From: Labilithrix sp.
GTDB lineage: Bacteria > Myxococcota_A > Polyangia > Polyangiales > Polyangiaceae
Length of the DNA stretch: 19,666 bases
Assembly: GCA_044227045.1 (NCBI GenBank)
Contig: JBGAFW010000028.1
Location: 1-19,666 of the forward strand
Direction of reading: 5' to 3'
The first letter of the stretch is position 1; each line of letters starts with the position of its first letter. A program made the translations under genes and the position numbers. The notes beneath the pieces are model-generated. The model made no database searches and was not told where the DNA came from. It worked only from the letters and a program-made list of their open reading frames with translations. Shown here one piece after another: positions 1,444 through 18,234 of this stretch.

Positions 1444-1468
1444 GCTTTAATGTGAGCGTGAGGGAAGC

Positions 1469-2500
1469 GTGAGGCTGTCTCGTCAGAGACTCGGTGTCGT
1501 CGGCGCCTGCAGCGCGATCGCGTTCTTCGCGTCCGCGATCGCCGACATGGCGACCGGGCGCGAATCGATCGCGCACGGCGCGGGCGGAGACAACGAAGGC
1601 GGCGCCGCCGCCGCCGAGTCGCTCTTCCAAGAGGCGCGCCGCTTGATGGACGCCAAGCGCTATGGCGACGCGTGCCCGAAGTTCGCCGCGAGCCAAAAGC
1701 TCTCTCCCGCGATCGGCACGCTGCTGAACCTCGCCGACTGCTATGAGAAGAACAACCAGCTCGCCAGCGCATGGGCGCGCTTTCACGAGGCGATCGCGCT
1801 CGCGCAGCGGCTGAATCGAACGAACCGCGAGCAGACCGCGCGCGAGCGTGCCGACAAGCTCGAGCCTCGGCTCATTCGGCTCACGATCCTCTCGCACGCG
1901 TCGAACATCGACGTGAAGCTCGACGGCAACCCGATCGATCCCGCCGTGCTCGGCACCGCGATTCCGGTCGACGCAGGCAAGCACTCGATCGAGGCGACCG
2001 CGAAGAACAAGAAGCCATTCTCGAAGGACATCGAGGTCAGCGAGAAGAAGAAGGATCCTTCCGTCGACATCCCTCCGCTCGAAGACGAGCCGAAGGAGAC
2101 GAAGAACGAGGTCACGCCGCCGATCACCGAGCCTCCGAAAGAAGAGCGCGGCGGATGGTCCACCCAGAAGACGATCGGCGTCATCGCGGGCGCAGCGGGC
2201 ATCGTCGGCCTCGGCGTCGGCGGGTACTTCGGGCTGAAGACGTCCTCGACGTGGAACGACGCGAAGTCCCACTGCAACCAAGACCTCGACTGCGACGCGA
2301 CGGGCGTGAACCTCGCCTCGCAGGCAAAGAGCTCCGGCAACATCGCGACGATCGCGATGATCGCGGGCGGAGTGCTCCTCGTCGGTGGCGGCGTCCTGTT
2401 CTTCACCGCGCCGAGCAGCAGCGCGGCGGTCGGCAAGAACGGCCTTCGTGTTCGTGGAGGTGTCGGCCTCGGGTCGGTGGTGCTCGGAGGCCAGTTCTAG
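1469..2500 (+). CDS. Secreted/membrane protein with N-terminal signal peptide, TPR-like helical segment, PEGA-like beta domain, K/E/P-rich linker and two C-terminal TM helices
   Basis: GTG start at 1469 is preceded by GAGGGA at about 1460-1465. The n/h signal region is MRLSRQRLGVVGACSAIAFFASAIA. The PEGA-like stretch is IRLTILSHASNIDVKLDGNPID...AGKHSIEATAKNKKPFSKDIEV. Hydrophobic helices are TIGVIAGAAGIVGLGVGGYFGL and IATIAMIAGGVLLVGGGVLFF. The gene lies 25 nt after the kinase stop, and its stop TAG (2498-2500) abuts the next ATG. Confidence 0.75.
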   Translation: MRLSRQRLGVVGACSAIAFFASAIADMATGRESIAHGAGGDNEGGAAAAESLFQEARRLMDAKRYGDACPKFAASQKLSPAIGTLLNLADCYEKNNQLASAWARFHEAIALAQRLNRTNREQTARERADKLEPRLIRLTILSHASNIDVKLDGNPIDPAVLGTAIPVDAGKHSIEATAKNKKPFSKDIEVSEKKKDPSVDIPPLEDEPKETKNEVTPPITEPPKEERGGWSTQKTIGVIAGAAGIVGLGVGGYFGLKTSSTWNDAKSHCNQDLDCDATGVNLASQAKSSGNIATIAMIAGGVLLVGGGVLFFTAPSSSAAVGKNGLRVRGGVGLGSVVLGGQF

Positions 2501-3784
2501 ATGCACGTCGCCCGGCGGCTCGCCCTTACGGGCATCCTCGTCGGCTTCGTCGTCTCCGGTCTCATCGCGTGCAATGCCATCCTCGGCGTTCAAGACGTCT
2601 CGCTCGCGAAGAAGGACGGCGGCGGCGAAGAGGATCTCGACACCGGCGACGGAACGATCATCGACGACGACAGCGGTCCGGTCGGTCCGAGTCGTCCCAA
2701 CGTGTTCCAAGCCGCGCTCGGCGATCAGCATTCGTGCGCGCGAAAGCCTGCCGGCACGGTCCGCTGCTGGGGTGACGACACACAAGGTCAAACCGGCGCA
2801 GGCGTGACGTCCGACGGCGGCGTGATCGCTCTCCCGGTCGACGTCGCGGGCGTCAGCGACGCGATCGACATCGCCGCGGGACGCAACCACACCTGCATCG
2901 CGCGCAAGAGCGGCACGGTGTCGTGTTGGGGCTACAACCTCGACGGGCAGCTTGGTAATGGCGAGTCGGCGAACCGCCACTCCACGCCCGTCGACGTGAA
3001 GAACCTGAGCGGCGCGGTCGCGGTCGCGGCAGGCGGCAACTTCTCGTGCGCGCTCCGCAACGGCGGGACCGTCGCCTGCTGGGGAGGCAACGGCAGCGGC
3101 CAGCTCGGCAAAGGCGACGAGTCACCGGCGCTCACGCCGGTCGCCGTCGTCGATCTCACCGGCGTCGCGTCGATCTCTGCGGGGCAAGCGCACACGTGCG
3201 CGGTGAAGACCGACGGGAGCGTCGCCTGTTGGGGCGATGGCCTCAACGGTCAGCTCGGATCGGGAAAGCCGGAGAGCAAGTCGTCTCCGGTGGTCGTCGG
3301 CTCTCTGCCCGAAGCCTCGATGGTGTCGGCGGGTGAGCGCTCCACGTGCGCGCTCACGAAGACGGGCTCGGTCTACTGCTGGGGAGCCAACGAGCTCGGC
3401 CAACTCGGAAGCGGCGCGACCAACGCCACCGCCAACCCTTCGCCGATCGTCGTCGCCAACCTGACCGACGCGGCGACGATCTGGAGCGGCCGCAACCACA
3501 CGTGTGCGGTTCGAAAGTCGGGCGCGGTCGTGTGTTGGGGATCGGGATCACGCGGTCAGCTCGGCGATGGGCAGCCTCGCGTCGACGGCGGAGGACCCAC
3601 GCCGCAGCTCGTGCAGGTCTCGGGCATCCAGAGCGCGGTCGGCGTCGGCGCAGGCGGCGATCACACGTGCGCGCCGACACGCACGAACGCGATCGTGTGC
3701 TGGGGCGACAACGATCGCGGGCAGCTCGGCAACGGCACGCAGAAGAGCGAGCTCTCGCCCGTCAGCGTCACTGGGTACCCGTAG
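2501..3784 (+). CDS. RCC1-repeat (seven-blade beta-propeller) lipoprotein
   Basis: The ATG at 2501 directly follows the upstream stop, suggesting translational coupling. The signal peptide has the lipobox LIAC (MHVARRLALTGILVGFVVSGLIAC). There are seven repeats of the RCC1 signature, about 50 aa each: VRCWGDDTQGQTG, VSCWGYNLDGQLGNG, VACWGGNGSGQLGKG, VACWGDGLNGQLGSG, VYCWGANELGQLGSG, VVCWGSGSRGQLGDG and IVCWGDNDRGQLGNG. Confidence 0.9.
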   Translation: MHVARRLALTGILVGFVVSGLIACNAILGVQDVSLAKKDGGGEEDLDTGDGTIIDDDSGPVGPSRPNVFQAALGDQHSCARKPAGTVRCWGDDTQGQTGAGVTSDGGVIALPVDVAGVSDAIDIAAGRNHTCIARKSGTVSCWGYNLDGQLGNGESANRHSTPVDVKNLSGAVAVAAGGNFSCALRNGGTVACWGGNGSGQLGKGDESPALTPVAVVDLTGVASISAGQAHTCAVKTDGSVACWGDGLNGQLGSGKPESKSSPVVVGSLPEASMVSAGERSTCALTKTGSVYCWGANELGQLGSGATNATANPSPIVVANLTDAATIWSGRNHTCAVRKSGAVVCWGSGSRGQLGDGQPRVDGGGPTPQLVQVSGIQSAVGVGAGGDHTCAPTRTNAIVCWGDNDRGQLGNGTQKSELSPVSVTGYP

Positions 3785-3792
3785 GTCCATTC

Positions 3793-3824
3793 CGATTCGT
3801 AGGAGATCCACCTACACGAATCCG
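3793..3824 (+). terminator. Imperfect hairpin (7 bp + 2-nt bulge + 3 bp stem, 7-nt loop) 9 nt after the RCC1 gene stop; possible weak intrinsic terminator or regulatory stem
   Basis: gattcgt (3794-3800) pairs with acgaatc (3816-3822), and agg (3801-3803) pairs with cct (3811-3813). The loop is agatcca. It is followed by attgcgtggatttcc, which has only modest T content. A near-direct repeat tccgatt(c/g)(g/c)gt(a/g)gg occurs at 3791-3803 and 3821-3833. Confidence 0.25.
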
Positions 3825-3880
3825 ATTGCGTGGATTTCCCGCCAGTTAGGTCGCGGCACGCAATGTGCGCCTATGTAGGT

Positions 3881-5683
3881 ATGCTTCTGCGACCGCTCTT
3901 CGCGACCCTCCTCGTGACGTGCGTCGGTGCCAGCGCGGCATGCTCGGCCGACGCCTCCTCGGACGGAACGGACGACGCGGAGTCGGGCGAAGACGAGCTT
4001 CGGTTTCGCGCAGGCGCGGTCGACAAGACGCTGCCGGAGGTCGACGCGCAGGGCTACGAGATCGATCTGAAGGTCAACGACGTCCCTGGTCACGAGACGT
4101 TCACCGCCTCGGTCAAAGGCAACTACATCGCGACCGCCGATCTCACGACGCTCACGCTCGACTTCGAGGGCAACACGATCGACGACGTGACCGTGAGCGG
4201 ACGTCACGCGGAGCACACGCGCGACGGATCGAAGCTCGTCATCAAGCTCCCTTCTCGGATCGCGAGCGGCCGATCGCTGTCCACGCGCGTCACCTACCAC
4301 GGCGATCTCGCGCAGGTGGACGGCGCCGACCCGAACGACTTCGCCGCGTTTGGCGGCTTCATGGTCAAGCAGCGCAACACCGAGGGCAAGCGCATCTACT
4401 CCTCGCTGAGCTGGCCCTACAAAGCGCGTCGATGGCTGCCGCTCCGCGATCACCCGCGCGACGCCGCGATGGTGGCGATCTCGGCGACGTTCCCGAAGGC
4501 CTTCACCGTGCTCGCGAACGGAAAGCGCGTCAGCACGCAGGACAACGCGTCCGACGGATCGAAGACGTGGCGCTACGAAGCGCTCACGCCGATGCCCGCC
4601 TACGACTTCCACGTGTCTGCCTACGAAGGCTGGTCCGTCCACGAGGAGCACGCCGCGTCAGGCGTCCCCGTCACGTCGTACATGTACGCGAACGCGTCGT
4701 CGAAGCAGTCGAAGATCTACGGTGATCTCCCGAAGGTGCTCGACTTCTACGAGGCCACCTTCGGCAAGTACAAGTGGGGCTCGGCGACGTTCATCGAGGA
4801 GCCCATCTTCGGTGGTGGAATGGAGCACGCGTCCGTCGTGAGCATGGACGAGACGCTCTTCCCCGACCCGGTCGAGGCGCGAAAGACCGCCTTCCACGAG
4901 CTCGCGCATCATTGGAGCGGCAACCTCGTTCACTTCCGGCAGTGGAACGACTTCTGGCTCTCCGAGGGCTTCACCGAGTACCTCACCGGCCGCGCGATCA
5001 CGCACGTCGACGGCGCCGAGGCAGGCAAGGCGGTCTGGCGCGAATACCTCACGACGGCGCTCCAAGAGGATCGATCGAATCCCCATCCGCTCGCTCCGCC
5101 GGGCGAAGAGATCGACGTGCTCACGATCTTCGACGGCATCTCGTATCAAAAGGGCGCGCTGACGCTCCGGATGCTCGAGCACATCGTCGGCGAGCCGAAG
5201 ATGACGGCGTTCCTCAAAGGTTGGTTCGATCGCCATGGCTTTGGCGCCGCGGTGAGCACCGATGACTTGCAGCGCGAGCTCTCCGCCGAGTCGGGCAAGG
5301 ATCTCTCCGCGTTCTTCGCGTCGTTCGTTCGTCAGGGCTACCACCCCGAGCTACGCGTGACGTTCACCGCGAACGGCACCAGCACCGACGTGAAGGTCGA
5401 GCAGCTTCAAGACAAAGGCCCCGCTGGCGGGTTCGCTGGCTTCCCGCTCGACGTCGACCTCGTCGACGACGCCGGCCACGCCGAGCGCGTCAGCGTCGAC
5501 ATCACGGGCAAGACGTCGACGAAGCGATTCACGACGACGCGTCCGACCAAATCGATCGTCGCTGATCCCGACGAGTACGCCGTCGCCGTCGAGACCTGCG
5601 GTCAGACCGGCGGGGGCGAATGCAAAGCGAGCCAGCGCTGCGCGCCCCAACGCGCCGGTGTCTCGGCCTGCGTCCCGAAGTAG
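3881..5683 (+). CDS. M1-family zinc metallopeptidase (aminopeptidase N-like gluzincin), secreted or lipoprotein
   Basis: HELAHHWSGN...18 aa...WLSEGFTEY is the HEXXH-(18)-E zinc site. GGMEH matches the GXMEN exopeptidase motif. The signal peptide is MLLRPLFATLLVTCVGASAAC, with Cys candidates for lipidation. The start at ATG 3881 was chosen because GC3 rises sharply there. In-frame ATG 3863 and GTG 3830 are alternatives, but codon third positions upstream of 3881 look non-coding. The Cys-rich C-terminal tail is CGQTGGGECKASQRCAPQRAGVSAC. Confidence 0.88.
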   Translation: MLLRPLFATLLVTCVGASAACSADASSDGTDDAESGEDELRFRAGAVDKTLPEVDAQGYEIDLKVNDVPGHETFTASVKGNYIATADLTTLTLDFEGNTIDDVTVSGRHAEHTRDGSKLVIKLPSRIASGRSLSTRVTYHGDLAQVDGADPNDFAAFGGFMVKQRNTEGKRIYSSLSWPYKARRWLPLRDHPRDAAMVAISATFPKAFTVLANGKRVSTQDNASDGSKTWRYEALTPMPAYDFHVSAYEGWSVHEEHAASGVPVTSYMYANASSKQSKIYGDLPKVLDFYEATFGKYKWGSATFIEEPIFGGGMEHASVVSMDETLFPDPVEARKTAFHELAHHWSGNLVHFRQWNDFWLSEGFTEYLTGRAITHVDGAEAGKAVWREYLTTALQEDRSNPHPLAPPGEEIDVLTIFDGISYQKGALTLRMLEHIVGEPKMTAFLKGWFDRHGFGAAVSTDDLQRELSAESGKDLSAFFASFVRQGYHPELRVTFTANGTSTDVKVEQLQDKGPAGGFAGFPLDVDLVDDAGHAERVSVDITGKTSTKRFTTTRPTKSIVADPDEYAVAVETCGQTGGGECKASQRCAPQRAGVSACVPK

Positions 5684-5803
5684 CAGCGCTCGGCCGCGCG
5701 AAACACGAGCACCTGTACGAACCTGCAGGTTTTCCGTGGGATCACGGGGTCGCGATGACCGTTGGTGGATGAAGTTAATTGGGCGATACTCGTCTCCTTC
5801 TCT

Positions 5804-6823
5804 ATGCCGAAGAAGGACGACGCGGAAAGCAAGGCGACGACGGACGGCGAGCACGGCGAGCACGGCTCCGGCCACATCATCCAGTCGCTGCTCGTCAACA
5901 TCGCCATCGCGCTCGTGAAGGCGGTCGCAGCGTTCTTCACGAAGTCGGGCTCGATGCTCGCCGAGGCGCTCCACTCCTTCTCCGATTGCGGCAACCAGGT
6001 CCTCCTGCTCGTGGGCGTTCGACAGTCGAAGAAGCCCGCCGACGACACGCACCCCTTCGGCTATGGGCGCGCGATCTATTTCTGGTCTTTCATGGTGGCG
6101 CTCCTGCTCTTCCTCGGCGGCGGCGCCTTCTCCATCTACGAAGGCATCCACAAGATCCGTGAGCCCGAGCCGGTCGAGCGCGTGTGGCTTGGCATCGGGA
6201 TCCTCGCGGTGTCGCTCGTGCTCGAAGGGAGCGCGACGCTCTCGAACATTCGCGAGCTCAACAAGCGACGCGGCGACAAGGCGTTCGTCCAGTACCTACG
6301 CGACACGACCGACTCGGATCTCGTCGTGGTGTTCGGTGAGAACTCCGCGGCGGTGCTCGGGCTGTTCTTCGCGATCGCCGCGCTTGGTCTCTCCGCCGCG
6401 ACCGGAGATGGCCGCTGGGACGGCATCGGCAGCGTCGCGATCGGCCTCGTGCTCGTCGGCGTGGCGGGCTTCCTCGCGATCGAGGTGAGCTCGCTGCTCC
6501 TCGGCGAAGCGGCGCCGCCGGAGATCACGGACGCGGCGCACGACACCGCCAAGCGCTTCACCGACATCGAGAAGATCCTGAACGTCGTGACGATGCAGCA
6601 AGGACCAGGCGAGGTGCTCGTTCACATCAAGGCGTCGTTCACCGCCACGCTCACGATCGAGGATGCCTGCCGCGTCATCAACGAGTACGAAGCCGCGCTC
6701 CGCGCCGCGCGCCCCGAGATCCGTTGGGTGTTCGTGGAGCCGGACATCCCGAAGACGCCGTCGCAGCTCAAGCCGCGCAACGCGATCGTGAAGACGCGCG
6801 CGATCAGCAAAGACGCGAACTGA
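5804..6823 (+). CDS. Cation diffusion facilitator (CDF) family divalent-metal efflux transporter with His-rich N-terminus
   Basis: TM2 carries HSFSD (HxxxD). The N-terminus is His-rich (DGEHGEHGSGH). There are six predicted TM helices and a typical C-terminal cytoplasmic domain (VHIKASFTATLTIEDACRVINEYE). ATG 5804 was chosen because the 42-nt in-frame extension from TTG 5762 has low GC3. Confidence 0.88.
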   Translation: MPKKDDAESKATTDGEHGEHGSGHIIQSLLVNIAIALVKAVAAFFTKSGSMLAEALHSFSDCGNQVLLLVGVRQSKKPADDTHPFGYGRAIYFWSFMVALLLFLGGGAFSIYEGIHKIREPEPVERVWLGIGILAVSLVLEGSATLSNIRELNKRRGDKAFVQYLRDTTDSDLVVVFGENSAAVLGLFFAIAALGLSAATGDGRWDGIGSVAIGLVLVGVAGFLAIEVSSLLLGEAAPPEITDAAHDTAKRFTDIEKILNVVTMQQGPGEVLVHIKASFTATLTIEDACRVINEYEAALRAARPEIRWVFVEPDIPKTPSQLKPRNAIVKTRAISKDAN

Positions 6824-6828
6824 CGGCC

Positions 6829-8238
6829 TTACTGAAAGACCGTGCGCGTGACGCGGATGCCGTGCTTTGGACGGAGCGTGATGAGTGGATCGAGCACGAC
6901 ACGGTGACCCGGCTCGAGGCGAAGCTTCTCTTCGCGCACGATCATCGCGAGGATGATCTGCGCCTCCATCATCGCGAAGTGGTTCCCAATGCACATCCGC
7001 GAACCGCCGCCGAACGGCAGGTACGCATAGCGCGGCCGCTTCTCGTTGTTCGACGGCAAGAAGCGATCGGGGTTGAAGCGCTCGGGCTCGTCCCAGAAGC
7101 GTGGGTGCCGGTGGAGCACGTATGGGCAGATCCCGACGATGCTCCCCGTCTTCGCGGTGTACGCGCCGAGCACGTCGGGCTCCGTCGATTGCCGTTCGAA
7201 GATCCACGCCGGCGGGTAGAGGCGTAATCCCTCCTCGAGGACGCGCTTCGTGTACTCGAGGTGCTTCGTGTCCTCGAGCGTCGGCGCGCGATCGGGTCCG
7301 AGCACGCGGTGGGCTTCGTCGCGGATCTTCGCCTCGATCTCCGGATGCGCGGCGAGCAGCGAGAATGTCCACGACAGGAGATTCGCCGTCGTCTCGTGCC
7401 CCGCGAGCACCATCGTGATGACCTCGTCGCGAAGCTGGATGTCGTTCATCTTCGCGCTCGCGGCGTCGGCGGCGTCTTCGTCGACCGCCTCCATCAGCAT
7501 GCCGAGCAGGTCGTCACCGAAGCCGTTCTTCTCGCCGTCGTGACGTGCGGCCTGCTCGCGGCGATCGCGAATCAGGCGGTACACGATCCCATCGAGCGTA
7601 CGCATCGCGCGGTTGAACCGGACGTTGTTCGGCGTCGGGATGGACGGCGGGATCCGCACGATCGACTCGGCGTAGTCGTTCGCCCAGCGAAGCGCTGTGT
7701 CGAGCGCGCGGCCGACCTCGCGTGCATCTCCATCGACGTCTGCCGAGAACAACGTGAGGCCGACGATCCGAAACGTGAGCCGCATCATCTCTTCGTGCAC
7801 GCAGAACGTCTCGAGCCGGTCGTGCTTCCAGCGATCGAGCATCGCCCGCGTCGCCTCGGCCATCTGATCGGCGAAGTGACTGAGCCGCGCGCGATGAAAC
7901 GCGGGCTGCGCGAGCTTTCGCTGCCGTCGCCACGCCTCGCCCTCGCTCGTGAGGAGCCCCTCGCCGAGGACGATCTTGAGCCCCATGTAGTTGCGGCTCT
8001 TCTTGTACGCCTTCGCGTTGTCGATCAAGACGTGATGGATCACATCGGGATCCGCGAGCATGTAGTAGTCCCACGGACCGAACTTGAAGCGCACGACATC
8101 GCCGTATTGCCTGTGCGACTCGAGCATCAGCCCCAAGGGATCGCGCCACGCAGGGAGCACGCTCCCGAGCAGCGGCAGCCCTCGCGGGCCTGGAGCGATA
8201 CGGGGCGTCGTGACGTCGGCTCGGCTCGTGTTGGTCAT
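6829..8238 (-). CDS. Cytochrome P450 monooxygenase
   Basis: FGGGSRMCIGNHFA is the heme-thiolate loop (FxxGxRxCxG). AGHETTAN is the I-helix AGxETT motif. EEGLRLYPP is the ExxR motif. PERFNPDRF is the PERF motif. The ATG (reverse complement of cat at 8236-8238) is the first point with high GC3; the upstream in-frame extension to 8310 looks non-coding. The gene is convergent with the CDF gene, with only a 5-bp gap. Confidence 0.93.
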   Translation of the reverse strand: MTNTSRADVTTPRIAPGPRGLPLLGSVLPAWRDPLGLMLESHRQYGDVVRFKFGPWDYYMLADPDVIHHVLIDNAKAYKKSRNYMGLKIVLGEGLLTSEGEAWRRQRKLAQPAFHRARLSHFADQMAEATRAMLDRWKHDRLETFCVHEEMMRLTFRIVGLTLFSADVDGDAREVGRALDTALRWANDYAESIVRIPPSIPTPNNVRFNRAMRTLDGIVYRLIRDRREQAARHDGEKNGFGDDLLGMLMEAVDEDAADAASAKMNDIQLRDEVITMVLAGHETTANLLSWTFSLLAAHPEIEAKIRDEAHRVLGPDRAPTLEDTKHLEYTKRVLEEGLRLYPPAWIFERQSTEPDVLGAYTAKTGSIVGICPYVLHRHPRFWDEPERFNPDRFLPSNNEKRPRYAYLPFGGGSRMCIGNHFAMMEAQIILAMIVREEKLRLEPGHRVVLDPLITLRPKHGIRVTRTVFQ

Positions 8239-8271
8239 CGGATGGTCTTTCGGCGGAGCAACGTTCCACGA

Positions 8272-8291
8272 ACGTGAGATAATCCTCACGT
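8272..8291. promoter_or_regulatory. Operator-like palindrome 1 (ACGTGAG-ataatc-CTCACGT), 34-53 nt upstream of the P450 start
   Basis: Perfect 7-bp inverted arms flank a 6-bp AT-rich spacer. It shares the core AATCCTCAC(G/A)TTTG with site 2, 28 bp away. It lies between divergent TetR and P450 genes. Confidence 0.6.
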
Positions 8292-8300
8292 TTGATAGAA

Positions 8301-8318
8301 TCTGAGGCAATCCTCACA
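8301..8318. promoter_or_regulatory. Operator-like palindrome 2 (TGAGG-caat-CCTCA), 30-49 nt upstream of the TetR start
   Basis: The arms are TGAGG and CCTCA. The direct-repeat core aatcctcacatttg (8309-8322) is paralogous to aatcctcacgtttg (8281-8294). A possible -35 TTGATA (8292-8297) and a weak -10 CACATT (8315-8320) are 17 bp apart, so site 2 would sit in the spacer. Confidence 0.55.
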
Positions 8319-8349
8319 TTTGTCAATCGACGCCGACGAGAAAGCGAGA

Positions 8350-9102
8350 ATGCCCTCGAAATCGCCCAAAAAAGCCTCCCCTCCCCAAGGCGCCGAGGTC
8401 GCGGCGGACGCAGAAAATCGCAGGGTGCCGACGCAGGAGCGGAGCCGCCAGCGCGTCGCGCGCATTCTGGATGCGGCCGCCAGCGTCTTCGCCGAGCAAG
8501 GCCACGACGCCGCGACGATGGAGGCGATCGCGGCGAAGGCGGAGACCTCGATCGGATCGATCTACCAATTCTTTCCGAACAAGGCGGCCGTGTTCGACGC
8601 GCTCGTGCGGCGCTACCACGGGGCCATTCGCGCGTTTCTCGACAACATCTTGCAGGAGGAGCTCGCCCGCGCGCATCCGCTTGGCGACATCATCGACACG
8701 TCGATCGACGCGCTCACCACGCTGCACGAGACCGATCTTGGCTTTCGCGCGGTGTGGGCTGGGATGCATCTCACGAAGACGGTCGTCCGCGAAGGCGAGG
8801 CGCTGAACCAGGAGATCGCGCGGAGGATCGCGCAGGTCCTCGCGCCCAAGCTCCCCGGCCTCCCTGCGTCTCGCCACCTCCTCGTCGCGACGATGGTGGT
8901 CGAGATCGTCAGCGCGATGCTGATCTTCTCGGCGCGCCGGCTGAGCAGCGGCGAGCCAAACGCGCGCCGCGAGCGGATGTCGGAGACGAAGCTTCTCCTC
9001 CGGCGATATCTCGCGCCGTATGAAGTACCGGCAGGCGCGTCCCATTCGACGAATGCCCCGCAAAAAGTGGCAAAACGCAGCAAGCGCGCACGGTCGCGCT
9101 GA
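8350..9102 (+). CDS. TetR/AcrR-family transcriptional regulator
   Basis: The N-terminal HTH is RILDAAASVFAEQGHDAATMEAIAAKAETSIGSIYQFFPNKAAVFDAL, a classic TetR_N. The C-terminal half is an all-helical ligand-binding domain. ATG 8350 is preceded by the purine-rich stretch gagaaagcgaga. The gene is divergent from the P450. Confidence 0.93.
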   Translation: MPSKSPKKASPPQGAEVAADAENRRVPTQERSRQRVARILDAAASVFAEQGHDAATMEAIAAKAETSIGSIYQFFPNKAAVFDALVRRYHGAIRAFLDNILQEELARAHPLGDIIDTSIDALTTLHETDLGFRAVWAGMHLTKTVVREGEALNQEIARRIAQVLAPKLPGLPASRHLLVATMVVEIVSAMLIFSARRLSSGEPNARRERMSETKLLLRRYLAPYEVPAGASHSTNAPQKVAKRSKRARSR

Positions 9103-9221
9103 GCCGAAGGCGCGGCCGCGAGATGGCATGAAGACCACGAGAAGTGATCGTCCATTGCGCCAGCTGAGGCTGTAAGATTAGGGTGGCACGGGCTCTCGGT
9201 TGGGGCCGCCGTGCTTCAGCC

Positions 9222-10793
9222 ATGGCCGGCGATATTCGGAGCAAGAAGCCGAAGGTTCTGGGCGCGCGCGTCGCGGGGCTGCGGCTCACGCCCGAAGAGC
9301 GCTTCGTCATGGCACGCATCGACGGCCGGCTCTCCGTCGACGAGCTCGCGAGCGTGACGGGCCTCGAAGGTGATCGCCTCGAGAAGATCGTCTCGAAGCT
9401 CGCGTTCGACGGGGCGGTCGATCTCGGCGAGGAGCCTCGCTTCGCCGCCGCGGCCGCGGCCTTCGCGCCGGCCGAGGGAGAGACGACGTCGATGGCGGAG
9501 CTCGCGGCGGCGCTCGGCATGGATCCGAGCTCGTTTGGCGGAGGAAAGACCGCGCCGGTCGAGATGCCTCCCCCGACGCCGCGCAAGGTGATCGTCCGCC
9601 CGAAGATTCGCCCGAAGGCCGACCCGAGCGCGGTGGGCCTGGCGACGGCGCCTGCGCCTGCGGCCGAGGAAGCCGCGCCGCCGGTGCCCGCGGCACACGA
9701 CAGCGAACGCGATTTGCCCGACGTGCAGTCGGCGCTCGACCTCGCCGCGCTCGAAGCCTTCGGCGACGAGACGCCTCCCGACGCCGAGCCTGCGTCGCCG
9801 GGCGATCCCCCTCGCCGGGCCGCGCCACGCGCGCAGCAAGCCAAGAACCGCGCCGCCGTCGACGAAGCCCCGCCGCAGCTCGATGAGCTCGAAGAGGTCC
9901 ATGACGAGCTCGAGGAGGTCCACGACGAGCTCGAGGAGGTGCACGACGAGCTCGAAGAGGTCCACGACGAAGAGGACCAGCTCATCGAGCTCGATGATGA
10001 GGGAAACCCCGTCAGTCGTTCGGAGCAAAACGCACGTGACCGCGCCAGCGATCGCGAGCAAAAGGAAGAGGACGAGGTCTCACGCGCCGTCGCCGAGCGC
10101 AACTACCGCCAGGTGTTCGAGAAGAGCTGGCATCCGCTGCCCGTCGACCAGCGCATCGCGGGGGCGCGCACGGCGCACGGTCCCGACTTGCTCGCGCTGT
10201 GCTTCGATCCCGATCCGCGCGTCATCGCCGCCATCCTCGAGAACTCGACGGTGGGCCTCGATCACGTTCGCTTGATCGCCTTTTACCATCGTACCGGGAC
10301 GGGCCTCGAGATCGTCGCCCGCCGTCAGGACTGGCTCCGCGACATCCTCGTCGAGCGCCGCCTCCTGCGTAACCCGATGATCGGCGACATCGTGCTCTCG
10401 CGCGTGATGGGCCCGAAGCGGCTCTTCCAGACGTACAAGATCGCGATCGATCGCGAGATCCCCGAGCTCACGCGGACGAAGGTACGCGGCTACATCCGGC
10501 AGAAATGGCAGAACGCCACCTCGGAGGAGCGCGCCGATCTCTTGCTCCGGACGGAGGCCCGCTGCCTCATCATCATGACCGGCTGCACCTTCGACGCGAA
10601 GACGACCGCGATCCTCTGCGGCCGTCCGATCAACTCCGTCATGTTCGTGCAGTCGATCGCGAAGTTCCCCGCCTCACCGCCCGCGCTCCTCGCGCATTTG
10701 ATGAAGCAGAACTTCGTGCGGAAGAACCCGCCGCTGAAAAAGATGCTCCTCGCCCACCCGAACATGCCGGGTGACGTGAAGCGAAACATCTAG
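9222..10793 (+). CDS. Hypothetical protein: conserved-looking N-terminal about 70-aa domain, long Pro/Ala/Asp-rich disordered region containing (ELEEVHD)4, C-terminal about 260-aa alpha-helical (HEAT/ARM-like) domain
   Basis: The ORF runs to TAG 10791-10793. ATG 9222 is preferred over GTG 9183 because the 39-nt extension has low GC3. The N-terminus is LTPEERFVMARIDGRLSVDELASVTGLEGDRLEKIVSKLAFDGAV. The C-terminal region has repeated amphipathic helices (DPRVIAAILENSTVGLDHVRLIAF ... PALLAHLMKQNFVRKNPPLKKMLLAHPNMP). I do not recognise a named family. Confidence 0.75.
   Translation: MAGDIRSKKPKVLGARVAGLRLTPEERFVMARIDGRLSVDELASVTGLEGDRLEKIVSKLAFDGAVDLGEEPRFAAAAAAFAPAEGETTSMAELAAALGMDPSSFGGGKTAPVEMPPPTPRKVIVRPKIRPKADPSAVGLATAPAPAAEEAAPPVPAAHDSERDLPDVQSALDLAALEAFGDETPPDAEPASPGDPPRRAAPRAQQAKNRAAVDEAPPQLDELEEVHDELEEVHDELEEVHDELEEVHDEEDQLIELDDEGNPVSRSEQNARDRASDREQKEEDEVSRAVAERNYRQVFEKSWHPLPVDQRIAGARTAHGPDLLALCFDPDPRVIAAILENSTVGLDHVRLIAFYHRTGTGLEIVARRQDWLRDILVERRLLRNPMIGDIVLSRVMGPKRLFQTYKIAIDREIPELTRTKVRGYIRQKWQNATSEERADLLLRTEARCLIIMTGCTFDAKTTAILCGRPINSVMFVQSIAKFPASPPALLAHLMKQNFVRKNPPLKKMLLAHPNMPGDVKRNI
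9885..9968 (+). repeat. Perfect in-frame tandem repeat of 4 x 21 bp (gagctcga[a/g]gaggt[c/g]ca[t/c]gac) encoding (ELEEVHD)4
   Basis: Units occupy 9885-9905, 9906-9926, 9927-9947 and 9948-9968 and differ only at synonymous or wobble positions. Flanking codons continue the pattern loosely: LDELEEVHD upstream and EEDQLIELDDE downstream. Confidence 0.95.
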
Positions 10794-10814
10794 ATTTCAG
10801 GCGTTTCGTCGAGC

Positions 10815-11240
10815 TCAGGCCTTCTTCGCGGGCGCGGCCTGCGCCTTGAGCAGATCGCGGATCTCCGTGAGGAGCTTCTCCTGCGCGGGCGGCTCGGGCG
10901 GCGGGGCCTGATGCCGGAGCTTGTTGTAGGCGCGCACGATCAAGAACACGATGAACGCGACGATGAACAGCTCGATGAAGGACTGGAGTGCATCGCCGAA
11001 CCGGATCGCGACCTCCTTCGAGGCCTCCTTGCCGTCGGGACCGAAGACCGCCGGCTGGAGCACGTAGCGGAGCTCGGTGAAGTTCACCTTGCCGGTGATG
11101 AGCCCGATCGGCGGCATGATCACCTTCTCGACGAGCGCGGTGACGACCTTGCCAGAAGCCGCGCCGATGATGACGCCGACGGCGAGGTCGATGAAGTTCC
11201 CTTTGATCGCGAACTCGCGAAACTCTTTGACGATACTCAT
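10815..11240 (-). CDS. mscL: Large-conductance mechanosensitive channel MscL
   Basis: MSIVKEFREFAIKGNFIDLAVGVIIGAASGKVVTALVEKVIMPPIGL is the hallmark MscL N-terminus and TM1. TM2 is FIELFIVAFIVFLIV, followed by a charged C-terminal helix. The ATG is preceded by GAGGGGG. The stop is TGA (reverse complement of tca at 10815-10817). Confidence 0.95.
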   Translation of the reverse strand: MSIVKEFREFAIKGNFIDLAVGVIIGAASGKVVTALVEKVIMPPIGLITGKVNFTELRYVLQPAVFGPDGKEASKEVAIRFGDALQSFIELFIVAFIVFLIVRAYNKLRHQAPPPEPPAQEKLLTEIRDLLKAQAAPAKKA

Positions 11241-11255
11241 GTGCGGAGCCCCCTC

Positions 11256-12203
11256 TCAGAAGAACGTGTAGACGAGGTTGATGGACGCGATCGAATCGAG
11301 CTCTTCGACGTTCGGCAGCGGCTTGTTTTCGTAACGCGCGGTGTACGTCGTCGCGAGCGCGAGGCTGTCGGCCACGTTCGACTTCAGGCCGATGTCGGCG
11401 ATGAAGCGGTACGTCTCGATGTCGGCAAAGTTTTGCAGATATTCGACGCTCGCGATGAACGACACTTCCTTGCGCAGCTTGTTCTCGTAGCCGAGAAAGA
11501 GGCGGGCGTTGTGGAGTGTCTGCGTGCGATCGAGAGGAGGAGGTGCGGGTGTCCCGGGCGGTGATCCATCCGGGACGTTCTGCGCCAGCGCGTCGGTGCG
11601 GCGAACGTCGTGCTGCAAGTCGTAGCCGCCTTCGATCTGGAGCCGATGCGTCTTCGTGTTGATGAAGTAGTACGCGACGCCAGGGTCGACGTTGAGTCGA
11701 AGGTCGAGACCTTGGAAGCGATCGCGACGCGCCGTCGACTGGAGGAAGAGCGAGACTTCGTTCGTGAGGAAGTAGTCGTAGCGAAGGAGGCCTTGGTAGT
11801 TCTCGACCGTCGCCTCGATCGGCGCGCCCTTCTTTCCGGCCTTCGCGAAGTTGCCGGCGAGGGCGATGCTGAGCTGGTGCTCGTCACGGCGAAAGCGTGC
11901 CTTGCCGAACGACGTGACCGCGATCGTGCGCGCGTTTCCCGCGGAGAAGAGGCCGCCGAGGCCGAGGCTCACATCGTTCGCGTAGCGCGGGTCGTCGTCT
12001 TTGCGCTCCGTCCCCGTGACGAAGCCGCCTTTGGCGATGTCGGTGTTGCCCTTCGTCGCGGTGGACGCCTTCACCGTTTCGCTCGGCTGCAGAGGCTGCT
12101 CTTTGGCGGCCTCTTGTGCGAAAGCGCTCTTCGATTCGAGGAAGGTCGTCAGCGCGAGGGCGACGACGCAGCTCAAGACAACAGGGCGGGTCAGGATGGC
12201 CAT
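11256..12203 (-). CDS. Outer-membrane beta-barrel protein, DUF481 (YdiY-like) type
   Basis: The signal peptide is MAILTRPVVLSCVVALALTTFLESKSAFA. The body has alternating amphipathic beta-strand pattern rich in Y/G/N/T. The C-terminal ...SINLVYTFF ends in Phe, as is typical of beta-barrel OMPs. Its stop is 15 nt upstream of the mscL start codon in the direction of transcription, so the two genes probably form an operon. Confidence 0.7.
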   Translation of the reverse strand: MAILTRPVVLSCVVALALTTFLESKSAFAQEAAKEQPLQPSETVKASTATKGNTDIAKGGFVTGTERKDDDPRYANDVSLGLGGLFSAGNARTIAVTSFGKARFRRDEHQLSIALAGNFAKAGKKGAPIEATVENYQGLLRYDYFLTNEVSLFLQSTARRDRFQGLDLRLNVDPGVAYYFINTKTHRLQIEGGYDLQHDVRRTDALAQNVPDGSPPGTPAPPPLDRTQTLHNARLFLGYENKLRKEVSFIASVEYLQNFADIETYRFIADIGLKSNVADSLALATTYTARYENKPLPNVEELDSIASINLVYTFF

Positions 12204-12247
12204 GACGCGCCTGTCTAAGTGATTTATCCGGTTCCGTCACGGCTCTT

Positions 12248-12275
12248 CTGTCGCGGGACAGCCCGGCTCGAGCCG
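12248..12275 (-). terminator. Cluster of two GC-rich palindromes immediately 3' of the lipoprotein gene on the minus strand; candidate terminator or operator
   Basis: ctgtc-gcgg-gacag occupies 12248-12261 (5-bp stem, 4-nt loop). The perfect 12-bp palindrome cggctcgagccg occupies 12264-12275. On the minus-strand transcript these are followed by a comparatively AT-rich stretch (aagagccgtgacggaaccggataaatcacttagac), which also serves as the upstream region of the OMP-mscL operon. Confidence 0.3.
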
Positions 12276-12285
12276 CCGTTCGCGC

Positions 12286-12858
12286 CTACCGAGGCGTGGG
12301 GAACGTGATCGGGATCGTGAGCGTGCTGTCCCAGCACTTCTCGACCTCGGGGAACGGCGTCGTCTTGACGACACCGAGCATGCACTCGGCGACCGGATCG
12401 GGCAGGGTCTTCTCGATCACCTTCACCGTCTTGATCTTGCCTTTGACGTCGACGGTCATCTTGATCTTGACCGTGCCTTCGAGGTTCGGGTTCTTCTTCT
12501 TCCCTTGCGCGTAGCAGTCTTTCAGCTTCGGCCGCGCGCGCTTCTCGAAGTCGACGCCGACGGGCGTGCACTCGTCCTTCGTCTCGCCGACCACGACGGG
12601 CGGCTTCGACGGTGCGCCGGCGTCCGCAGGCGAGTCTGCCACCGGCGCGGAGGACGACGCGGGCGGAGAGGAGGATGCGCTGGACGCGGAGGACGACGCA
12701 GACTCGGATGCAGATGACGACGGCGACGCGTCCGTCATGTCCTCGGGCGCACCGGTCTTCGGCGGCGGCTTGTTGTCACCGCACGCGATGACGAGGCCCG
12801 GCGTGGCGACGGCAAAGAAGAAAGCGGCGACGACCCCAGTCCCAAGCTTCGTCTTCAT
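12286..12858 (-). CDS. Lipoprotein with Ser-rich linker and AgmX/PglI-type (TonB-C-like) C-terminal domain
   Basis: The signal peptide plus lipobox is MKTKLGTGVVAAFFFAVATPGLVIAC. A low-complexity region SPSSSASESASSSASSASSSPPASSSAP follows. The C-terminal domain is KDCYAQGKKKNPNLEGTVKIKMTVDVKGKIKTVKVIEKTLPDPVAECMLGVVKTTPFP with the conserved Cys pattern. The ATG is the reverse complement of cat at 12856-12858, and GTG at 12882 is a possible alternative start. Confidence 0.7.
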   Translation of the reverse strand: MKTKLGTGVVAAFFFAVATPGLVIACGDNKPPPKTGAPEDMTDASPSSSASESASSSASSASSSPPASSSAPVADSPADAGAPSKPPVVVGETKDECTPVGVDFEKRARPKLKDCYAQGKKKNPNLEGTVKIKMTVDVKGKIKTVKVIEKTLPDPVAECMLGVVKTTPFPEVEKCWDSTLTIPITFPTPR

Positions 12859-12910
12859 TCTTGGCGTTATACCCCGAAACACCGCGCCTGCGGGTGCGTT
12901 GGGGACGTGC

Positions 12911-13765
12911 TCACGCGTCTTCGGCTTCCGCAGCGAGGGCTTGGGTGAACGGAAGCGGCGCGCGGCCTCGCTTCTTCAACATGTCGAGCACGAGGTACGT
13001 CGCCAAGGCGGCGGCGAAGTGCTTGAGCGAGTGCCCGCTGACGACACGCGAGGTCGCCTCGTAGACCTGACCGTCGAAGTGCTCGAGGGCCTTGGCTCCA
13101 GCGTAGAGCACGACGACGATGAGCAGCTCGATGCCACGTGAATAACGCGGCGGAAAGAGGAGAAGCATCAGCGGGAGCGCGGCGACGGGGAAGAGCTGCA
13201 CGAACAAGTACACGCGCAGATCGCCGTGGCCCGTCTGCTCCGAGAGTCGCCACATCACGACGCTCGCCACACCCACGAACACGAACGGCAAGAGCAGCAT
13301 CCGCGACCAGTAGATGCTGATGCGCTCCGCGATGACTGCGGCGAAGAGTGACGTGAACGCGATCGACATCGGCAGGCGATCCCAAAACAGCGTCGGGGTC
13401 TTCGGATACAGATGGTAGTAGGCCGACCCGAACGCCGTCAGCATCACGCCGGCGAAGAAGAGGACGTACGCAGGCCGTTCGCGAAGAGACTCGAACGCCG
13501 TATGGGCTCCCGGCCGAAACGGACCGTCCGGATCGCGCGTCGGGCCACGACGCAAGAAGGAGAGCCCGATCCAGCCGACGATGAAGAACGGGATGTTCGA
13601 CAGGACGTTGAACGCGTTCGGGATCGCCTTCGATCCGACGTGGAGCGGCCGCGTGTCGGCGAAGTGGTGGTACGCCTCCGACTGCGGAATGGCGCCGTGC
13701 TTCCACAGCGCGACGCCCGCGCCGATGGCGATGAGAAAGAGAAGGACGACCTTGAGCCCCTTCAT
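12911..13765 (-). CDS. 7-TM alkaline ceramidase-like (CREST superfamily) integral-membrane hydrolase
   Basis: There are seven hydrophobic helices. Conserved polar residues are positioned as in alkaline ceramidase/PAQR-type hydrolases: SNIPFF in TM2, AYYHLY, and the TM7 motif SGHSLKHFAAA (GHxxxH). The N-terminus is MKGLKVVLLFLIAIGAGVALW. The ATG is the reverse complement of cat at 13763-13765, with AAGGTG upstream. Confidence 0.7.
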   Translation of the reverse strand: MKGLKVVLLFLIAIGAGVALWKHGAIPQSEAYHHFADTRPLHVGSKAIPNAFNVLSNIPFFIVGWIGLSFLRRGPTRDPDGPFRPGAHTAFESLRERPAYVLFFAGVMLTAFGSAYYHLYPKTPTLFWDRLPMSIAFTSLFAAVIAERISIYWSRMLLLPFVFVGVASVVMWRLSEQTGHGDLRVYLFVQLFPVAALPLMLLLFPPRYSRGIELLIVVVLYAGAKALEHFDGQVYEATSRVVSGHSLKHFAAALATYLVLDMLKKRGRAPLPFTQALAAEAEDA

Positions 13766-13884
13766 TCTTTCATTGCACCTTCAGATCCATGTCCTGAGCG
13801 AGACGAGGCAGACGAGAACAGCAGAATCATGACGCGGACGAAATGGCCACTTCGTGACGACACTTCATGCAAAGATGACACGTT

Positions 13885-14400
13885 TTGGCCGATTCCGCGT
13901 CTCGCAATGTAAAGGGCGTCCTCTTCACGGACTATGTCCGCATGATCCGTGGCAAGAAGGACGTGGACTGGGGCAAGCACCTGAGCCCCGAGGAGATGAG
14001 CTACCTGGTCAGCCGGGTGGACCCGAACGGGTGGTACCCGATGCTCTCCTTCGAGCGGATGGGAAACGCGATCCTGAAAGAGATCGCGGGAGGCCAGGTG
14101 GAGGCCGCGCGGATGTGGGGACGCATCAGCGTCGACCAACTCCGGATGGCCACGCCCCAGCTCTTCGACTTCGACGCGCTCGAGGTGAAGAGCGCCATCT
14201 CGAACCACGCCGCGATCGTGATTCACTACCACATGGGCGCGATGGCCGAGGAGGCCGCCTCGAACCAGACGATGGGGTTCTTCGAGCGCCTGCTCGTGAT
14301 CGCGGGCGCCGAGGGCGTCGACGCACGCTTCACCTCGCGGTCGTGGAAGGGCGACAAACAGACGCTGCTCGAGCTCCACTGGCAGCCCCCGAACATGTGA
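13885..14400 (+). CDS. Small soluble protein of unknown function (171 aa from TTG 13885; 152 aa if ATG 13942 is used)
   Basis: Composition is balanced and W/Y/M-containing with no low complexity, which contrasts with the Arg/Gly/His-rich antisense ORF at 13762-14415. A stop at 13876-13878 bounds the 5' end. The only in-frame starts are TTG 13885 and ATG 13942. The gene ends 60 nt before the hybrid histidine-kinase gene on the same strand. Confidence 0.6.
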   Translation: MADSASRNVKGVLFTDYVRMIRGKKDVDWGKHLSPEEMSYLVSRVDPNGWYPMLSFERMGNAILKEIAGGQVEAARMWGRISVDQLRMATPQLFDFDALEVKSAISNHAAIVIHYHMGAMAEEAASNQTMGFFERLLVIAGAEGVDARFTSRSWKGDKQTLLELHWQPPNM

Positions 14401-14460
14401 GGCGACGGGGAGCATGCGCCGCGGCGTGGATCATGCGACGATGTCCCTGGGCAACGGCTC

Positions 14461-18192
<3,732 letters not shown>

Positions 18193-18234
18193 TACGATCC
18201 CTACGGGCCGCGAAAGCGAGGACGAACGGGGAGC

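Follow-up and report, generated by a model that had tools for sequence, protein, structure and literature searches.

An in-frame (ELEEVHD)4 array in a Labilithrix protein: a probable tandemly amplified, clade-specific acidic short linear motif

What role would a run of four identical acidic heptads play in the middle of an uncharacterized myxobacterial protein? The question is raised by the window analysed here, a 19,666-nt stretch from Labilithrix sp. (GenBank assembly GCA_044227045.1, contig JBGAFW010000028.1, positions 1 to 19,666 of the forward strand), in which four 21-bp units lie head to tail at 9885–9968 (+) and each unit, read in frame, translates to ELEEVHD. The original prediction, made without database searches, saw in this array a coiled-coil core and a metal- or pH-sensing ladder of His residues, an attractive but unsupported account that the comparative analysis given below corrects. 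Instead, the array is probably a tandemly amplified, clade-specific, acidic–hydrophobic short linear motif (SLiM) that would serve as a multivalent docking or electrostatic element. SLiMs are well mapped in eukaryotes and poorly catalogued in bacteria; the present one is definable by comparative sequence alone and, used as a peptide bait, gives a concrete way into two unannotated protein families of Labilithrix and the Polyangiaceae, the first of which has a C-terminal domain (C-domain) without a Pfam model and comprises at least 208 clusters at 50 % identity. Additionally, the cultured strain Labilithrix luteola DSM 27648 has the motif, which makes it experimentally accessible. Should the motif turn out to have no partner, the finding shrinks to that of an ordinary acidic repeat in a linker.

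At the DNA level, the four units are, in order, GAGCTCGAAGAGGTCCATGAC, GAGCTCGAGGAGGTCCACGAC, GAGCTCGAGGAGGTGCACGAC and GAGCTCGAAGAGGTCCACGAC. They differ only at unit positions 9, 15 and 18, all of which are third codon positions with synonymous variants, and the repeat that had been called perfect is thus perfect as a peptide but not as DNA, where three wobble columns vary. Tandem Repeats Finder reports the array at 9881–9970 (period 21, 4.3 copies, 89 % matches, score 145) as by far the top array in the window, which, together with the translation of the units, bears out the 4 × 21-bp in-frame repeat encoding (ELEEVHD)4. With highly identical units that run head to tail and whose length is a multiple of three, it has the form of a coding in-frame tandem repeat of the variable-number tandem repeat (VNTR) type. 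Two elements that the original prediction did not mention flank the array, namely QLD (9876–9884), a three-codon stub of a fifth unit directly before it, and QLIELDD (9978–9998), a degenerate copy downstream of it. The 28 residues of the array (aa 222–249) carry a net charge of −16. The palindrome GAGCTC (a SacI site) occurs in every unit and CTCGAG (an XhoI site) in many, because the Glu codon GAG and the Leu codon CTC are reverse complements; the RNA fold of the array is slightly more stable than that of shuffled sequences (z = −2.0), and such self-complementarity might favour slippage.

The array is in frame with an open reading frame (ORF) at 9168–10793 (+) whose GC content by codon position (0.72/0.46/0.86) is of the coding type, as in a genome of 65–70 % GC; overlapping ORFs on the minus strand and in alternative frames have a non-coding pattern. 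By matching to the N-termini of homologues (MSDIKGKRPRILG...), the start was set at the ATG at 9222, giving a host gene at 9222–10793 (+) that encodes 523 aa plus stop. In an AlphaFold2 model of the host protein built with a 57-sequence alignment, aa 108–249, the whole array included, have a predicted local distance difference test score (pLDDT) below 50 and no secondary structure, with aa 219–249 lacking any helix. The single motif copy in the model of the homologue P0040 likewise has pLDDT < 50 and no predicted helix.

A word-indexed protein search recovered a protein identical to that of the window (P0001) and 270 homologues, all named ‘hypothetical’; the source names within the window protein’s own cluster are also all ‘hypothetical protein’. 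The homologues come from Labilithrix, Polyangiaceae or ‘Myxococcales’ metagenome-assembled genomes (MAGs), and cultured L. luteola DSM 27648 has one too. When 1.84 billion cluster representatives were searched with a profile, 706 matched at E ≤ 1e-3, 208 of them at E ≤ 1e-30. Within the close set the C-domain is 55–87 % identical; the linkers, 31 to 189 residues long, are unalignable. A search with the 43-residue repeat peptide itself against 5.8 billion proteins returned no match at E ≤ 10, the query being too short and of low complexity. A literature search on the organism combined with repeat terms found nothing specific to this array.

Within these diverging linkers the core of the heptad, defined as [E/Q]-L-[E/I]-E-[V/L]-x-[D/E], is what persists. 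The pattern [EQDM]L[EI]E[VLI] is present, at 122 sites in all, in the linkers of 71 of 120 homologues, against 1.1 expected from composition-preserving shuffles; the stricter ELEEV is found in 32 proteins against 0.3 expected, and LEEVHD in 17 against 0.0. In the MAFFT alignment, ‘ELxEV’ stands out as the majority consensus of an otherwise unalignable linker. Whatever the length of the linker, the last copy lies 55–69 residues (median 64) upstream of the LALCFD anchor. Position 7 of the 122 sites is Asp or Glu, and position 6 is the most variable (Gly 36, His 30, Thr 20, Arg 10, Pro 9). A disordered location, fixed positions amid diverging flanks and, as described below, recurrence in unrelated proteins are the properties by which SLiMs are recognized, and all three were found here. 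Among side observations on the motif, the MAG of Labilithrix sp. ACE_MYX8 encodes two paralogues (L009 and L018) with differing motif types, ELEEV ×2 in one and QLIELGP...EVHDDDD in the other; EVHD recurs in distant members even without ELEEV; and in distant members (P0190, P0233, P0140, P0126 and P0154) the equivalent place is occupied by other acidic tandem mini-repeats of the types (EALDEAE)n, as in P0190, (DDDDF)n, as in P0233, and (LP.LGPEHEV[HA]DDEP)2.

The number of copies varies widely. A count of motif copies across homologues, one of the checks proposed with the original prediction, found the motif in homologues at zero to five copies per protein, with none in 49 of the 120, one in 36, two in 26, three in five, four in one and five in three; a further family member with three copies (L038) came from a DNA-pattern scan of metagenomes. 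The form of the repeated unit varies as well. Seven-residue units occur four times in the window protein and five times in P0031, which is 50 % identical to it overall; 12-residue units (ELEEVHDLEPAP) occur three times, plus one separate copy, in L002 and L011, where the DNA units are identical; 13-residue units occur twice in L. luteola DSM 27648 (L013), where the orthologue is encoded at ~1.906 Mb of CP012333, and in many proteins of the ELIELGPGDEV type; and P0003 and P0004 have irregular units of 6–9 residues. In a neighbour-joining tree of the C-domain, P0031 nests within single-copy relatives bearing QLEEVHD, and the window protein stands beside P0002, which has no copies, and P0003, which has five irregular ones. 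Given these positions, the long arrays arose independently. Besides its (ELEEVHD)5 array, P0031, which comes from a JGI 3300047160 contig, has duplicated the conserved TSLADFAAALGMDP helix motif, so more than one element of the linker in this family evolves by tandem duplication.

The closest relatives give a view of the array over a short evolutionary distance. The second sequence in the window protein’s 90 % cluster, P0279, is a 531-aa protein that is 95 % identical to the window protein overall and identical to it in the C-domain, and it is encoded by contigs from two samples (L036 and L037) whose DNA is 93–97 % identical to the window. A contig from a third sample (L001) has 99.84 % nucleotide identity to the window and the same four units. 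Samples in which these lineages are present are SRR28480386, SRR27900776 and SRR1027651. P0279 has five intact units, ELEEVHD-ELEEVRD-ELEEVRD-ELEEVHD-ELEEVHD, and close relatives therefore differ in intact copies, as is typical of VNTRs, with four plus the stub in the window and L001 and five in L036 and L037. When the DNA is aligned, the QLD stub of the window corresponds to the first unit of the sister minus 12 bp, and there is a separate 3-bp indel after the array. The window units align with sister units 2–5, 10 of 84 bases being different (hand count). Since the two sets of units can be matched at this distance, the array is older than the split and is not being quickly homogenized. The recent expansion or ongoing homogenization proposed in the original prediction does not hold for the window array, which predates a split of ~5 %, although it does fit L002 and L011 with their identical units.

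By codon, the window and sister arrays show seven synonymous and two non-synonymous differences, the latter both being His to Arg, and no amino-acid change lies outside position 6. Only 11 of the 63 possible single-base changes in a unit, or about one fifth, would be synonymous if they fell at random (hand count), and the predominance of synonymous change among those observed thus indicates that the array peptide is under purifying selection except at position 6. The surrounding linker has 21 synonymous and 11 non-synonymous codons along with nine gap codons. Synonymous differences per codon, counted between window 9222–10790 and L036 5001–6593, amount to 18–25 % in the linker and repeat and, for the winged helix and the C-domain, to 6–8 %; this three- to fourfold difference might reflect a tighter codon or mRNA constraint on the two domains, or else recombination.

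These features invite comparison with classical bacterial coding VNTRs. Like them, the array family has units that are a multiple of three, near-identical head-to-tail copies, copy differences between lineages and independent gains. Most of the classical examples are contingency or surface loci with variation from strain to strain. The window protein is of a cytoplasmic type, and its array, seen in two samples of each of two lineages, is stable within either lineage and predates a divergence of ~5 %. Additionally, the difference between close relatives is a 12-bp indel of part of a unit and not a step of a whole unit.

The motif also occurs in a second, unrelated protein family. The DNA-pattern scan of metagenomes matched an unrelated gene on contig Ga0105046_10155523 (L039), at ~245–2371 (+) and with coding-type GC content at the third codon position (GC3 0.92), just downstream of which a Ser/Thr kinase gene begins. 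Its 708-aa product, P0282, contains QLEEVH-ELEEVHD-ELEEVHD-ELEEID in a Pro-rich segment near the C-terminus. The family to which it belongs (P0282–P0394) comprises 113 matches of ~700 aa from Labilithrix and Polyangiaceae; Pfam and NCBIfam scans of it gave no match above threshold, and precomputed annotations place HD_5 in a few distant members and tetratricopeptide repeats (TPRs) in more distant ones of 1000–1200 aa. The strict motif occurs at 22 sites in 11 of the 113 members against 0.29 expected, and always in one Pro-rich C-terminal segment, ahead of the conserved ATTAPPPSETKE. One member, P0296, carries the QLIELGPG variant. Between another, P0284, and the window protein, only the 28-residue array is common, and it is identical at 26 of the 28 residues.

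Taken as an amplified docking motif, each copy would be a low-affinity docking site for one common partner, with copy number setting valency, and hence avidity, as well as local negative charge. New copies would arise by replication slippage or by unequal recombination between the 21-bp units, and copies would be eroded by small in-frame deletions at GA microhomologies. The presence of the motif in two unrelated families favours a trans-acting partner, and among candidate readers the most obvious would be the protein’s own C-domain, with its net charge of +14, acting either in cis or in trans. There are precedents for multivalent arrays of this kind, both in the carboxysome protein CsoS2, which has a repeated Rubisco-binding motif (bioRxiv 10.1101/708164), and in Spd1, which has tandem disordered PCNA-binding motifs (PMC10939359). 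As in CsoS2 and Spd1, the window family combines a short motif of five to seven fixed residues with a disordered region and a tandem arrangement, keeps the core while the spacers vary, and varies in copy number between lineages, the implied function being one of valency and avidity. Unlike the motifs of CsoS2 and Spd1, ELEEVHD is strongly acidic, is restricted to one myxobacterial clade and is known here from sequence alone.

Several observations weigh against a docking role. That role is read from the sequence, and AlphaFold2 docks the canonical copies on neither domain of their own chain, which argues against a strong interaction in cis; as a test, AlphaFold2 confidence cannot exclude fuzzy or trans binding. 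The motif counts among homologues are inflated by shared ancestry, and the motif is clade-restricted, in that 108 of 113 distant family representatives are without it, their acidic segments being of a generic kind only. Nor does P0002, the nearest homologue beyond the species cluster, have a copy, and these absences mean that the core function of the protein does not need the motif. In the second family, the motif is limited to the closest 11 members. The strong codon bias makes DNA encoding E-L-E-E-V-D look alike in any gene, and the GAGCTC and CTCGAG palindromes might render the array prone to expansion at the DNA level. Finally, the difference between the array (no non-synonymous and seven synonymous codons outside position 6) and the linker (11 and 21) is weak (~0.08, hand hypergeometric); it points faintly toward constraint on the array and is not significant on its own.

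A more far-reaching possibility, put forward tentatively, is that the ELEEVHD and LIELGPG-type motifs belong to a clade-specific bacterial motif–reader system, in which a dedicated reader domain would recognize the motif in several otherwise unrelated proteins. The reader might be the LRV-like C-domain of the window family, gated in cis by the copies on its own chain, and gain and loss of repeats would then tune valency. If true, bacteria would have in such a system their counterpart to the SLiM networks of eukaryotes, and in a group already known for eukaryote-like signalling.

The remaining parts of the host protein, an uncharacterized winged-helix, acidic-linker and basic helical-repeat protein of the Labilithrix/Polyangiaceae clade, bear on what might read the motif. 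Pfam and NCBIfam contain no family that scores above threshold for the protein or for any of the 57 members of its alignment. The N-terminal domain (9222–9437 (+), aa 1–72, net charge −1, pLDDT 90–97) has a winged-helix fold of the MarR/Lrp type. The Pfam model MarR_2 gives it 15 bits against a cutoff of 27, is sub-threshold in 44 of the 57 family members and reaches E = 1.8e-5 in the best; with a pI (isoelectric point) of 5.4, the domain also lacks the basic DNA-reading surface of a MarR/Lrp-type protein. Its acidity makes a role in protein interaction likelier than one in reading DNA. The domain is followed by a conserved short helix, TTSMAELAAALGMDP (9483–9527 (+), aa 88–102), which occupies near-invariant alignment columns and is modelled as helical at 91–97, and then by the linker (9543–9884 (+), aa 108–221), which has pLDDT < 50 and ends in the QLD stub. 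Its composition (22 % Ala, 20 % Pro, 9 % Asp, 7 % Glu) and low pLDDT agree with the disordered Pro/Ala/Asp-rich linker that had been described from the sequence. Beyond the array (9885–9968 (+)), the degenerate last copy and a turn, QLIELDDEGNP (9978–10010 (+), aa 253–263), are an LIEL variant with counterparts ELIELGPGDEV or LIPLDENGNP in other homologues; at residues 251–263 the pLDDT rises to 72–88, with isolated beta-bridges at residues 257 and 263. A long helix, acidic to mixed in charge and containing an ERNYR anchor (10017–10130 (+), aa 266–303, pLDDT 80–98; residues 93–123 in the P0040 model), then leads into the all-helical C-domain (10131–10790 (+), aa 304–523, pLDDT > 89). The C-domain is basic (net +14, pI 10.2), has ~20 invariant Arg/Lys residues and may, by a weak resemblance, be a solenoid like the leucine-rich repeat variant (LRV, PDB 1LRV) and HEAT-like alpha-solenoids, a comparison that applies to the C-domain only.

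The alternative that survives best, though still unlikely, is that the acidic segment folds back on its own basic C-domain as a competitor or nucleic-acid mimic that gates an anionic ligand, with copy number tuning the self-inhibition. It overlaps with the amplified docking motif and differs from it only in the reader, i.e., the chain itself as opposed to a common external partner. An acidic segment beside a basic C-domain is the sole feature kept across the whole family. In close homologues, the 70 residues upstream of the C-domain have a median charge of −19 and the C-domain one of +15; in distant representatives the medians are −14 and +14, and the segment is at −10 or below in 78 % and the C-domain at +5 or above in 99 %. 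Since distant members keep this charge pattern but mostly lack the motif, charge is the family-wide trait and the ELEEV-type motif a refinement of it in the Labilithrix clade. Also in keeping with self-inhibition are the fixed spacing of the last copy from the C-domain, the raised pLDDT at QLIELDDEGNP beside the long helix and the invariant Arg/Lys residues of the C-domain. The acidic tail of HMGB1 and region 1.1 of sigma-70 are acidic autoregulatory segments. A further precedent is the acidic C-terminal tip of Hfq, which autoregulates a basic nucleic-acid-binding surface (PMC5606850). As with the Hfq tip, the segment in the window family is disordered and acidic, is tethered by a basic folded domain and keeps its charge pattern family-wide. 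Unlike that tip, it is not confidently docked by AlphaFold2 and its motif is present in a family that has no such C-domain. The array in that unrelated family counts against a purely intramolecular role, as do the canonical copies, which stay at pLDDT < 50 whether the winged helix is present or not, and the conserved Leu and Val, which charge alone would not need.

It is doubtful, and more so than self-inhibition, that the array is neutral low-complexity filler, a slippage-prone and partly palindromic unit in a tolerant acidic linker that is selected for acidity and length only. The tolerance of zero to five copies and the lack of any in the nearest outgroup would fit such drift, as would the unrelated acidic mini-repeats that lie in the same place in P0190 and P0233, the palindromes in each unit with their RNA fold of z = −2.0 and the non-significance, taken alone, of the contrast with the linker in the ratio of non-synonymous to synonymous change (dN/dS). 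Against this stand the retention of the core across unalignable linkers, where it is at least 60 times as frequent as in shuffled sequences and its distance from the C-domain is fixed; variation that, inside an array as well as from one array to another, is synonymous apart from one position; independent amplifications that keep the core and alter the spacer; and the same peptide, plus an LIELGPG variant, in an unrelated family. The original prediction had reserved the name of filler for an array with an unvarying count of four units among related genomes and no repeat in homologues; with five intact units in the closest lineage against four in the window, filler does not apply on those terms either.

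Far less probable than self-inhibition, and somewhat less so than filler, is the coiled coil with Leu and Val as its a/d residues, whose carboxylate-flanked ladder of His would sense pH or metal (Zn, Ni or Cu). The regular heptad is real, as Leu (position 2) and Val (position 5) can be read from the sequence at 3/4 spacing through all 28 residues. Of 58 ELEEV-type copies, 26 have His at position 6, more than have any other residue there although far from all, 37 of 101 linker His residues fall within E[VI]H[DE], distant members have EVHD, with PEHEVHDDE present twice in P0140, and a cation-efflux (CDF) gene is nearby in conserved synteny. The coiled-coil core nevertheless fails on the modelled absence of a helix (pLDDT < 50), on the net charge of −16, which would oppose self-association, and on the homologues, most of which have one or two copies or spacings of 6, 9, 12 or 13 residues, so that a coiled coil cannot be the conserved role. 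The His ladder fares no better. Position 6 is the most variable, the 95 %-identical P0279 has Arg in place of His in two of its five units, Gly, Thr, Arg, Pro and Ala occur there elsewhere, and of the 71 homologues that bear the motif just 19 have a His at this position in any copy. On a single helix, His residues with i to i+7 spacing are separated by ~10 Å and cannot chelate the same ion, and this spacing, without a chelating arrangement, is the only one in the array. The CDF neighbour was rejected as support for metal binding, the linkage being one of general synteny that is broken by P450 and TetR genes and absent for a distant member, and the His not being conserved. It is conceivable that, in this lineage only, the four His residues have an effect tied to pH or metal. 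Two resemblances in sequence belong here. Acidic ‘E-coil’ heptads and ‘Peptide Velcro’ acid zippers are Glu-rich with aliphatic a/d positions, are unfolded alone and need at least three regular heptads and a basic partner helix; ELEEVHD shares the Glu-rich heptad with aliphatic a/d positions, the likeness being one of sequence only, and differs in that most homologues have one or two copies at irregular spacing. The C-terminal EEVD of Hsp70 and Hsp90 binds TPR clamps by a recognition that needs the free C-terminal carboxylate, and the likeness of EEV(H)D to it is again confined to sequence; as the motif is internal (aa 222–249 of 523), an EEVD-type TPR-binding motif was rejected.

An element acting at the nucleic-acid level, whether a structured RNA, an array of protein-binding sites in DNA or an opposite-strand gene, is close to refuted, for although the RNA folds with modestly greater stability than shuffled sequences and long minus-strand ORFs cross the region, there is no Rfam match, self-complementarity of the Glu-Leu codons GAG-CTC accounts for the fold stability, ORFs on the minus strand and in alternative frames are non-coding by GC pattern, variation tracks the plus-strand reading frame and homologues conserve the peptide motif and not the DNA spacing.

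The surroundings of the gene are those of a typical myxobacterial chromosome. The window encodes Ser/Thr kinases, an RCC1-repeat protein, an M1 peptidase, a CDF transporter, a P450, a TetR regulator, MscL, a DUF481 protein and a hybrid histidine kinase, and across the clade the order CDF, P450, TetR, target, MscL and DUF481 is broadly kept. The TetR-family regulator gene upstream of the host gene (8320–9102 (+); Pfam TetR_N and TetR_C_15) is context only and forms no part of the proposed mechanism. TetR is directly upstream in L001, L002, L003, L035, L036, L037 and the P0031 contig, and there is no TetR upstream of P0088 or of the distant member P0275, whose context differs. Because TetR is missing in these two cases, the neighbourhood was dropped as a functional lead. 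The P450 and TetR genes form a divergent pair (6829–8310 (−) and 8320–9102 (+) in the window) that is directly upstream in L035, L002, L003, L036, L037 and the P0031 contig and absent upstream of P0088. In L035 and the P0031 contig the TetR stop overlaps the target start, which suggests that the two genes are co-transcribed there; in the window they are separated by a gap of 119 bp.

Some homologues are annotated as ‘long’ forms of 650–900 aa (L016, L022, L029, P0187, P0191, P0196, P0210 and P0211), with N-terminal extensions that are Arg-rich or without a Pfam match; nothing in Pfam or NCBIfam scored above threshold for these members. At least in L016, L022 and L029, the extensions are probably over-extended gene calls in high-GC DNA and not real domains. 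Within the window, three ORFs at 1469–2500 (+), 12286–12882 (−) and 13885–14400 (+) have coding-type GC3 and no Pfam match, and relatives hold counterparts, also without a Pfam match, at matching positions. Other repeats in the window are in-frame repeats of the GCAGCAGC/CAG type at 1089–1150 and 1268–1291, in the C-terminal tail encoded by the first Ser/Thr kinase gene (1–1443 (+)), and a 24-bp ×2 repeat at 10931–10979, inside the MscL gene (10815–11240 (−)).

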